This document shows positions 18,761 through 19,872 of a DNA stretch of 60,020 nt, in pieces. Origin of the DNA: a virus (Duplodnaviria > Caudoviricetes); the IMG/VR virus record IMGVR_UViG_3300033513_000005, positions 1 to 60,020 of that record. The stretch is one strand, 5' to 3'. The notes under the pieces were generated by a model. The model worked only from the letters and a program-made list of their open reading frames with translations, did not search any database and was not told where the DNA came from. Each line of letters opens with the position of its first letter. The stretch's first letter is position 1. Both the position numbers and the translations under genes were made by a program.

Positions 18761-19003
18761 ATGCCGTTGATTGAGGGCAAGAGCGAAAAAGCTCTGCAGG
18801 AAAACATCAAAACTGAAATCGAACACGGCAAGGATCCGAAGCAGGCCGCCGCGATCGCTTACAGCGTGCAACGCGAGCAGACGGGGGACAACTACGAACC
18901 CAGCATCGTGGCCTGCGTTCCCGAATCGGTGAGCCCCGCCACCATCAACGAACAGAACCGGAAGTATTGGGCCGGTCAAGGCGGTGAAGGGAGCATTACG
19001 TGA
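18761..19003 (+). CDS. Small putative internal head protein
   Basis: [43 protein letters not shown] module, TGD motif, scaffold-like C-terminal helix. Confidence 0.7.
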
Positions 19004-19872
19004 GCAAGCACATTCACATTCACATTCACGGCAACGTCGCGGTGAAAGGGCAAGTCGTTCGCGACGACGCAACCATCTTTTTTGAAGGAACTGAAGAAGC
19101 CTGGAAAGCCCTCATTAAGAAGCACCACCCCACCGCGACTTTCCGTCCTAACATGGGCGGCCATGAAGCGGTGGTAAAGGGTGAGGTCGTGGGTTCAGCG
19201 GGCCCGATCAAATCAGGCGCGTGGCGGGGCGGGTACAGGACTCATCTTCGCAACGTCAAGGACGCCAACCCTGATGTCGCGGGTTACCGGCAATGGGCCA
19301 AAGCCAAAGGCTATTCGGACCCGCAATCCCGCACCACGTTCATCAAGTACGTGCGCGAGATGCGCCTGAACCCGAACGTCGCTTCTGAGCTGGAAAGCGC
19401 TGCCCGCATTGGCCGCGCTGCGCAGGACGCTTCCGAATACGAGCACTTTTCCGACGAGACGATCATTCAGAAAATGATGCGCGGTGACGCTGGTGCGAAA
19501 GCTGAAGCAAAGCGTCGAGGGATTGACAAGGCAAACGATGCAACCCCCAAGGCCTACATTCGCACCACCCCCACTGAATACGAACTCAAGGATGCTTCCG
19601 GCAAGGTTCTCGAGACGTACCCCCGCACCCCAGAGGGGAAGCGCCGCGCTGACATGGAAGCGGCCGAGATGAATAAGGTGAAGGACGCCGTCGCGCCCAA
19701 CAGCCCTTTGGAAAGGGCAAACCGCATGATTAGCGCAATCCGTCAATACAGTTCCAAACTCCGGGAAGTGACAGGTGAACGAGGGGCGGACGGTGGGACT
19801 ATCAACGATGCTCAAAACGCGTTGAAACTGATCAAAGATCACGCCGAAGCGGGTCTTCGCTTGTTAGGATAA
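19000..19872 (+). CDS. Putative internal head polyprotein
   Basis: GTG start with GGAG RBS; HIHIHIH leader; repeated xxD-A motifs. Confidence 0.7.

Follow-up and report, generated by a model that had tools for sequence, protein, structure and literature searches.

What is a protein in which half of the aspartates are followed by alanine doing between the capsid and neck genes of a tailed phage? The protein is encoded in a stretch of 60,020 nucleotides of viral DNA (Duplodnaviria; Caudoviricetes), positions 1 to 60,020 of IMG/VR record IMGVR_UViG_3300033513_000005 and hereafter the window, which represents a ~60-kb E217/Pam3-type myophage genome. A first-pass annotation, made from the DNA letters and their translations, proposed that this protein, here called the target, is packaged in the virion and cut into mini-proteins at x-x-D|A sites by a phage protease with a DUF2213 domain. 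The comparisons described below, of sequences and predicted structures, lead to a related answer: the target is probably a capsid-targeted cargo polyprotein cut after Asp, similar in kind to the internal proteins of phage T4 and equipped with a different tag and a different cut rule. The gene and its parts are as follows (aa, amino acids; pI, isoelectric point; pLDDT, predicted local distance difference test score; the vertical bar marks the proposed cut).

19000..19872, plus strand: target gene, a 290-aa precursor consisting of a leader and five modules, from its open reading frame (ORF), residue counts and the relatives of each module
19000..19068, plus strand: leader, aa 1-23, ending V-V-R-D22-D23; proposed capsid-targeting tag and first cut site
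19069..19263, plus strand: module A, aa 24-88, pI 9.9, beta-rich, ending NVKD88|A
19264..19428, plus strand: module B, aa 89-143, pI 9.7, helical, ending AAQD143|A, pLDDT 86-95
19429..19539, plus strand: module C, aa 144-180, pI 5.7, ending KAND180|A
19540..19686, plus strand: module D, aa 181-229, pI 8.3, ending KVKD229|A
19687..19869, plus strand: module E, aa 230-290, pI 9.5, a helical hairpin at the C-terminus

The start codon of the gene is a GTG that overlaps the stop codon of the upstream ORF (GTGA), with a Shine-Dalgarno-like stretch, GAAGGGAG, 6 nt upstream. The initial count of Asp-Ala pairs is exact: eight of the 16 Asp residues have Ala next to them (D23, 88, 143, 163, 180, 198, 229 and 270) in a protein with 38 Ala among its 290 residues. 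At least eight such pairs arise in 30 of 100,000 residue shuffles (p ~3e-4), and the target tops the enrichment among the 64 ORFs of the window (8 pairs vs 2.1 expected, Poisson p 0.0015; the runner-up has 0.09). Standing alone, this excess is borderline after correction for 64 ORFs, and it is the comparative data that carry the case. The five [V/A]-x-D junctions first picked out are all present in the ORF (VVRD22-D23|A, NVKD88|A, AAQD143|A, KAND180|A and KVKD229|A), as are the sizes of the pieces between them, a leader of 22-23 aa and modules of 65, 55, 37, 49 and 61 aa.

Do these junctions correspond to borders that can be recognized in other proteins? The modules are dissimilar, as originally described, none of the ten pairs scoring above shuffled controls. 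A word-indexed search found two distant relatives. A phmmer search of 1.84 billion representatives returned 22 proteins at E <= 1e-3, the target included, and every match is confined to a single module (spans q17-84, q87/93-140/172, q136/143-177/181, q177-232 and q224-290 on the target). No end-to-end relative is among these matches, which excludes the case of homologs aligning over their whole length that had been named as speaking against the polyprotein. The label of orphan stands insofar as the target has no Pfam or PHROG family and no end-to-end relative; it fails for the parts, since 21 other proteins match single modules at this threshold. P0020 (1667 aa, pilin-like, with FctA repeats) was rejected as a relative, the match being probably spurious.

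Each module has its own set of relatives. Module A has seven (P0014, P0007, P0003, P0021, P0018, P0017 and P0002), which are either proteins of 79-86 residues or the C-termini of longer ones; the module is C-terminal in five, and P0017 carries it right after the leader. Module B has nine and lies near the N-terminus in P0002, P0009, P0016 and P0022. Module C sits right behind the leader in P0011 (58 aa) and P0019 (104 aa), where the P0019 copy ends KKTKD|S, and module D lies within the middle of P0004, flanked by PGD|A and GVKD|A. The relatives of module E, P0005, P0006 and P0008 (75-80 aa), consist of leader plus module, the module starting at TRD|T, LED|A or VKD|G. The same simple arrangement of leader, site and module makes up the single-module genes P0005, P0017, P0019 and P0016. 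Order is permuted in P0002, where aa 30-71 of the target correspond to aa 230-271 and aa 91-153 to aa 25-87, so that B comes first and A last. Identity between copies of a module is 40-60% across phages that otherwise shuffle them.

The borders of the matches fall where the junctions predict. When module starts are projected onto the relatives, an Asp lies at most three residues away in 16 of the 22 strong matches, with unrelated sequence upstream; of the other six, two start near the N-terminus of the protein and four have no Asp. Module ends in relatives coincide with [KRA]D sites or with protein C-termini. This is the outcome anticipated for homology borders at x-x-D|A sites, with separate relatives for each module, and the suggestion that modules are swapped between phages agrees with their occurrence alone or reordered in other polyproteins. 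By these alignments the modules are shown to be exchangeable cassettes.

The leader has a wider distribution, and its H-I-H-I-H tag, which the first-pass annotation had not picked out, is the strongest signature of the family. The target begins M-S-K-H-I-H-I-H, and nearly all of its relatives start M-x-K-H-I-H-I-H, followed by K-T-[KR]-D|A. Eighty loci were fetched through the capsid protein and scanned in all six frames for H-[IV]-H-[IV]-H; the matches are almost confined to the starts of small plus-strand ORFs in head modules and to the middle of the DUF2213 protein. Once four false entries had been dropped (two scaffold fragments, one antisense ORF and one neck protein) and database proteins added, the set of tagged proteins comprised 65 unique sequences starting M-x-[KR]-x-H-[IV]-H-[IV]-H, in 64 of which an Asp lies no more than 20 residues from the tag. 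At this site, each count being out of 64, Lys or Arg occupies P4 in 34, Thr occupies P3 in 37, Lys or Arg occupies P2 in 35 and Ala occupies P1' in 33. In 52 genes the tag is encoded by 41 different DNA 15-mers that yield only five peptides, so the tag is selected as a peptide and not as DNA. A scan of IMG/VR for the exact pattern M-x-K-H-I-H-I-H gave 44 matches in 39 loci, 31 with an Asp within the following 20 residues, and about 13 of the matches are short chance ORFs.

The tag thus recurs on dozens of small proteins that are unrelated in all other respects. In this clade their genes all belong to the head modules, where they sit in the gap between capsid and adaptor genes, as for the target, directly behind the adaptor, in the interval from MuF to the protease or directly ahead of the portal gene. 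At least one tagged gene is present in 38 of 83 loci, many of which are short fragments. The proteins are basic, with a pI above 8 in 62 of 65 and a median of 9.6. Among the 65, an all-against-all BLAST gave high-scoring segment pairs (HSPs) that end at [KR]D in 25 of 64 cases vs 9.2 expected, a number equalled by none of 1000 random sets. Close relatives of the window, with capsid proteins 86-91% identical, have quite different tagged genes in the slot of the target. The gap between capsid and adaptor genes varies from ~1.5 kb to 5.8 kb among close relatives, including two loci, L014 and L022, in which no tagged gene was detected, which makes the slot look like a hot spot for insertions in general. 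In several otherwise differing cargo proteins the leader site is directly followed by W-E-E-x-K-H-P-R-x-x-G-K-F-G-x-G-G (L027:13410-14051, L046:1118-4848, L086, L100 and L105, and the proteins P0012 and P0015).

If the leader is removed after Asp, which enzyme would do it, and what else would it cut? The genes around the target bear on both points, and they confirm its location between the capsid and neck genes.

15174..16586, plus strand: DUF2213 predicted protease-scaffold of 470 aa, protease domain at about aa 1-180 (Pfam DUF2213, 5.9e-47)
15879..15893, plus strand: internal H-I-H-V-H motif of the DUF2213 protein, aa 236-240, similar to the cargo leaders
16616..17161, plus strand: cement (decoration) protein with a 9-aa leader ending KTHD9|V (Pfam XM1_gp53, Phage_cement)
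17189..18292, plus strand: major capsid protein with a 10-aa leader ending KTRD10|G (Pfam Major_capside)
18328-18696 and 18719-19003: two small ORFs between the capsid gene and the target
19876-20343: DUF4054 adaptor, downstream of the target and followed by the neck genes
21788-23281: sheath, beyond the neck genes

The capsid and cement proteins provide the best evidence for cleavage after Asp. In 45 of 58 unique relatives of the major capsid protein a variable leader ends R-x-[KR]-T-[RKH]-D| directly ahead of the conserved mature N-terminus, and 53 of 61 unique cement relatives have a leader with the same ending. Of the 13 capsid and eight cement relatives scored as leaderless, most start exactly one residue past the site; a few of these entries reflect locus edges or parsing and do show the site, which makes the leader counts lower bounds. 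Because natural relatives with and without a leader break exactly at this point, the leaders appear to be removed after Asp. The strict form of the motif, [KR][TAV][KRH]D, occurs six times in the 31 structural proteins of the window, always in head proteins: at capsid KTRD10|G, cement KTHD9|V, DUF2213 KAKD209|A and KAKD340|S, portal/NUDIX RARD531|G and target KVKD229|A. It is absent from the neck and tail proteins among these 31. The distant DUF2213 phage pKp383 has no such leaders and no HxHxH, which means that the system of tag and leaders is not common to all DUF2213 phages. In some relatives (L001, Edwardsiella phage ZHS, 3159-4990; L057, L058, L067 and L074) the capsid and cement leaders are 25-35 residues long and resemble signal peptides, with a basic start and a hydrophobic run before R-x-R-T-R-D, an odd look for cytoplasmic capsid proteins.

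The candidate enzyme is the DUF2213 protein. An AlphaFold2 (AF2) model of its N-terminal domain, built from a 26-sequence alignment, has a pLDDT of 87.1. A second-look structural aligner places it on T4 gp21 (5jbl_A; Z 10.8, root-mean-square deviation 2.7 A over 130 residues) and on herpesvirus assemblins (Z 8.5-8.8), and Foldseek gives only weak matches, all of them to herpesvirus assemblins and T4 gp21 (best E 2.7e-3). His83 and Ser138 are invariant among 25-26 relatives and His162 is conserved in at least 90%. The modelled domain has, as far as these comparisons go, the gp21/assemblin fold with candidate catalytic His and Ser. Outside it, Asp340, His236, His238 and His240 are each conserved in at least 90% of a full-length alignment of 25 sequences, which also features a conserved AFKAKD|A, a nearly invariant G-[DE]-T-H-I-H-[IV]-H and a nearly invariant KAKD|S preceding the C-terminal domain. 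KAKD209|A and KAKD340|S are candidate self-cut sites, and a Pfam scan of the window found no second protease. The shared motif and the natural leaderless variants suggest that the domain is a serine protease of this fold that cuts after Asp, at basic-x-basic-D|small. The link to the DUF2213 protease that had been suggested at the outset is supported by comparison, given that basic-T-basic-D| is shared by the ends of the capsid and cement leaders, that the motif flanks the middle of the DUF2213 protein and that its predicted fold is that of gp21 and the assemblins.

The same protein is a relative of Pa193 gp24, which has been described as a putative scaffolding protein, with residues 286-326 seen attached beneath the vertices of the capsid in mature virions (PMC11456595). 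In the accessible parts of the structure papers on E217, Pam3, XM1, Milano and Pa193 no cleavage site is given; capsid protein residues 1-65 in E217 and 1-30 in XM1 are reported there as unseen in the structures. The scaffold strand and the cargo tag may tend to occur together. Tagged genes are found in 25 of 49 loci with a scaffold HxHxH and in one of seven without it, that one being a false positive (Fisher p 0.075, or 0.011 when the false positive is dropped), which is weak evidence for an association.

Other tagged genes give hints about what such a system might carry. The 52 tagged proteins encoded in the loci were scanned against Pfam; most have no family and one has a UBA-like domain, and two are enzymes that both have an HxHxH leader and an Asp site. 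A further enzyme is found behind the motif in the portal protein.

L074:655-1164, just upstream of the portal gene: tagged Acb1, an anti-CBASS phosphodiesterase (3.2e-19, above the curated cut-off)
L046:3859-4848, just upstream of the portal gene: tagged type IB topoisomerase (1.1e-24)
8215..10158 of the window, plus strand: portal protein (Pfam Phage_portal_3, aa 82-430) with a C-terminal NUDIX domain (aa 534-615) behind RARD531|G

A portal-NUDIX fusion behind basic-x-[KR]-D|[AGS] occurs in five of 28 unique portals (the window and L004, L010, L013 and L035), and by sequence the NUDIX domain is probably a second cargo released by the protease, a packaged enzyme.

Together, these observations suggest a mechanism. 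The tag would carry the precursor into the assembling prohead, where it may pair with the T-H-I-H-V-H strand in the middle of the DUF2213 protease-scaffold or compete for the partner of that strand. This route is proposed because peptides with alternating His and hydrophobic residues form beta-sheets by self-assembly (PMC4674085). The DUF2213 protease would then remove the tag, trim the capsid and cement leaders and cut the scaffold itself at KAKD209 and KAKD340, as suggested by the shared motif and the leaderless variants. By the same activity it would separate the five modules of the target at D22/23, D88, D143, D180 and D229. The products of 4-7 kDa, four of which are basic while module C is acidic, would remain in the head with the DNA and exit with it at infection. 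Their delivery with the DNA is plausible by analogy. For the modules a role early in infection, possibly in counter-defence, is plausible by analogy to the tagged Acb1, the tagged topoisomerase IB and the portal NUDIX; as a role for all five it is put no higher than possible. A wider proposal, which we advance tentatively and as a serious possibility more than as an expectation, is that this clade of ~60-kb myophages has its own undescribed capsid-loading system, comprising a beta-strand tag that copies a scaffold strand and so takes the cargo into the prohead along with the scaffold, an Asp-specific protease of gp21 fold and a cassette slot with fast turnover, occupied in different phages by Acb1, topoisomerase IB, the portal-fused NUDIX or dozens of uncharacterized mini-proteins, the five modules of the target being injected factors for counter-defence or takeover.

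A structural model of the target gives a mixed picture. The AF2 prediction of the full-length protein, from a shallow and partly misaligned 13-row alignment, has a pLDDT of 74.8 and a predicted template modelling score of 0.35; the modules are modelled confidently and their mutual arrangement is not. The pLDDT drops below 50 at aa 1-23, 82-88, 179-184 and 259-262, so that of the five junctions three fall into linkers modelled with low confidence. The other two, D143 and D229, are within predicted helices, not loops, and this counts against easy access by a protease.

Several further results weigh against a cut and packaged cargo polyprotein. The consensus Thr at P3 is missing from all five junctions of the target, and P2 is Gln or Asn in two of them. 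In the tagged proteins [KR]E is itself enriched 2.7-fold, vs 6.3-fold for the site motif, and their composition, rich in Lys and Arg, inflates the counts. HSP starts 1-10 residues past [KR]D are not enriched (14 of 81 vs 9.9 expected, equalled by 111 of 1000 random sets); an excess does appear in the window from -6 to 0 relative to [KR]D (20 of 81 vs 7.3 expected), a window picked post hoc, once HSPs were seen often to include the conserved TKD itself. The cement protein is external and has the same Asp-ended leader as the capsid protein, which a prohead-internal protease explains poorly. No published cleavage rule or Asp specificity for DUF2213 proteases was found in the literature searched. 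Every tagged gene is known from uncultured contigs only: the target, P0021 and a common single-module cargo (L007:2249-2458) all lack a tblastn match in 50,697 phage isolates, and a whole-genome HxHxH scan of the nearest isolates, Edwardsiella phage ZHS and Bordetella phage IFTN9, found the motif in the ZHS scaffold only and no tagged gene. Finally, none of the five modules has a recognizable function in Pfam, PHROGs, PDB sequences, Foldseek searches of PDB and BFVD, a VIA-wide fold search or the ESM Atlas. The target has no match at E <= 0.01 in Pfam and PHROGs, its best PDB sequence match has E 0.19, and the best Foldseek hits of its model reach E 0.34 (PDB) and 0.038 (BFVD). The VIA-wide search returned generic helical hairpins only (Z <= 7.7, aa 231-290, matches starting at aa 231-235), and the best ESM Atlas score, 0.80, is at noise level.

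Could the precursor be cut and packaged without delivering effectors? The basic fragments would then condense or neutralize DNA or fill the prohead core, and their diversity would reflect weak constraint. The bulk of T4 IPII and IPIII is often described in just these terms. The high pI of 62 of the 65 tagged proteins would fit, as would the lack of a known fold or family for the modules and the many cargo modules that are simple helical hairpins. However, the identity retained by modules across shuffling phages argues for specific function, Acb1 and topoisomerase IB have clear host roles and share the tag, and module C is acidic. We give this alternative a minor share of belief, perhaps one case in a handful. 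A protein that stays whole is less likely still. It would be a multi-domain head or internal protein in which K-T-K-D-A forms flexible linkers and H-I-H-I-H is a structural or metal-binding strand kept on the mature protein, and the helical positions of D143 and D229 and the departure of the target junctions from the consensus speak for it. A role as linker is inadequate because the motif also closes the capsid and cement leaders, at precisely the point where relatives that have no leader begin; it is moreover kept between tag and module in single-module genes and is restricted to head proteins in the window.

A different objection concerns the identity of the enzyme. In staphylococcal phage 80alpha it is a host enzyme that takes the leaders off the capsid and scaffold proteins, and a cytoplasmic host protease in place of DUF2213 would easily reach an external cement protein with the same leader as the capsid; the signal-peptide look of some capsid and cement leaders also leans this way. 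Set against this are the phage's own predicted protease of gp21 fold, in which the His and Ser are invariant and which itself contains the motif in conserved copies, and the covariation of the motif with this clade, pKp383 being without such leaders, so that we regard cutting by a host enzyme as very improbable. Chance is the least credible explanation of all. In its favour, the excess of Asp-Ala alone is borderline once the 64 ORFs and the selection of this dipeptide are corrected for. An ordinary hypothetical protein is contradicted by the module borders, which fall at these Asp independently of that count, and by the recurrence of tag and motif in 65 proteins.

How does a cargo polyprotein of this kind compare with known packaging systems? 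The internal proteins of T4 reportedly carry a capsid targeting sequence (CTS), as is said to have been described by Mullaney and Black in 1996. In IPI-III and Alt the CTS is removed by the prohead protease gp21, which cuts after Glu in L/I-x-E. These internal proteins are basic, tag-bearing head proteins trimmed by the protease, and IPI is an anti-restriction protein. The likeness lies in a short N-terminal tag on unrelated basic cargo, ending in the motif at which capsid proteins are processed, and in the same protease fold. Unlike the T4 system, the H-I-H-I-H tag is not homologous to the CTS, all sites have Asp at P1 in place of Glu, the protease is fused to the scaffold, several modules follow one tag in a single chain and a look-alike of the tag is found inside the scaffold.

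In the giant phages SPN3US and phiKZ the prohead protease (gp245 and gp175, respectively) strips N-terminal propeptides off many head and ejection proteins (PMC10052503, PMC5694885). There too, as far as these sources go, one cleavage motif serves many head proteins and some propeptides have multiple sites; the motif and the lineage are different, and what is removed are N-terminal propeptides and not chains of modules. Since tag and P1 residue differ, the target system is a member of neither the T4 CTS family nor that of the giant phages. The Dar system of phage P1 also has an N-terminal packaging signal, in this case on anti-restriction cargo: in DarB the first 30 residues are enough to bring a reporter into the capsid (PMC9024508). 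Unlike the target, DarB is one protein of 250 kDa, and the accessible part of that report describes neither a shared tag family nor cleavage at junctions. Polyvalent proteins and effectors fused to MuF or portal proteins, with NUDIX- and 2H-type fusions among them, are mosaic proteins of several domains that are associated with the head and presumably injected (Iyer et al. 2017, PMC5512222). The five shuffled modules of the target and the portal-NUDIX fusion of the window resemble these mosaics, which are described as having two to 15 domains and as lying with virion genes. Polyvalent proteins are, by the same account, large and built of recognizable enzymatic domains, whereas the target modules, 37-65 aa long, match nothing in Pfam or PHROGs and have proposed protease sites between them. 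In the open-access literature searched no text was found that describes an HxHxH tag, DUF2213 processing specific for Asp or polyproteins of such modules, and a literature search for HIHIH-type motifs gave no phage paper among the matches listed.

Proteins delivered with phage DNA act before phage genes are expressed, and for that reason are prime candidates for a counter-defence that strikes first. Little is known of the loading rules except in T4, P1 and the giant phages. The HxHxH tag combined with the basic-T-basic-D rule would make packaged cargo readable from the genome for a whole clade, and it already flags Acb1 and topoisomerase IB. A preference for Asp is a testable rule for DUF2213 proteases, and tblastn finds DUF2213-like domains in 711 of 50,697 phage isolates. 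Strings of modules of 40-65 residues may be a compact means of shipping multiple small proteins with a single tag, and a removable tag of 14-23 residues could serve to load foreign proteins into phage heads.

Three further regions of the window deserve mention. The ORF directly upstream of the target (18719-19003, plus strand), whose stop overlaps the GTG of the target, belongs to phrog_2423 and is the only part of the region with a DNA-level match to Bcep781-group phages, 77% over ~125 bases on their gp02. Between MuF and protease, at 11800-13704 on the plus strand, lies the gene of a 634-aa protein rich in Ser, Thr and Ala, with many degenerate repeats of ~12 residues (S-x-T-S-E-x-G-A-x-x-D-type) and no Pfam family. 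On the minus strand, positions 40010-43193 encode GTP cyclohydrolase I, PTPS/QueD, a QueC-glutamine amidotransferase fusion and a radical SAM enzyme, a predicted gene set that matches 7-deazaguanine DNA modification.

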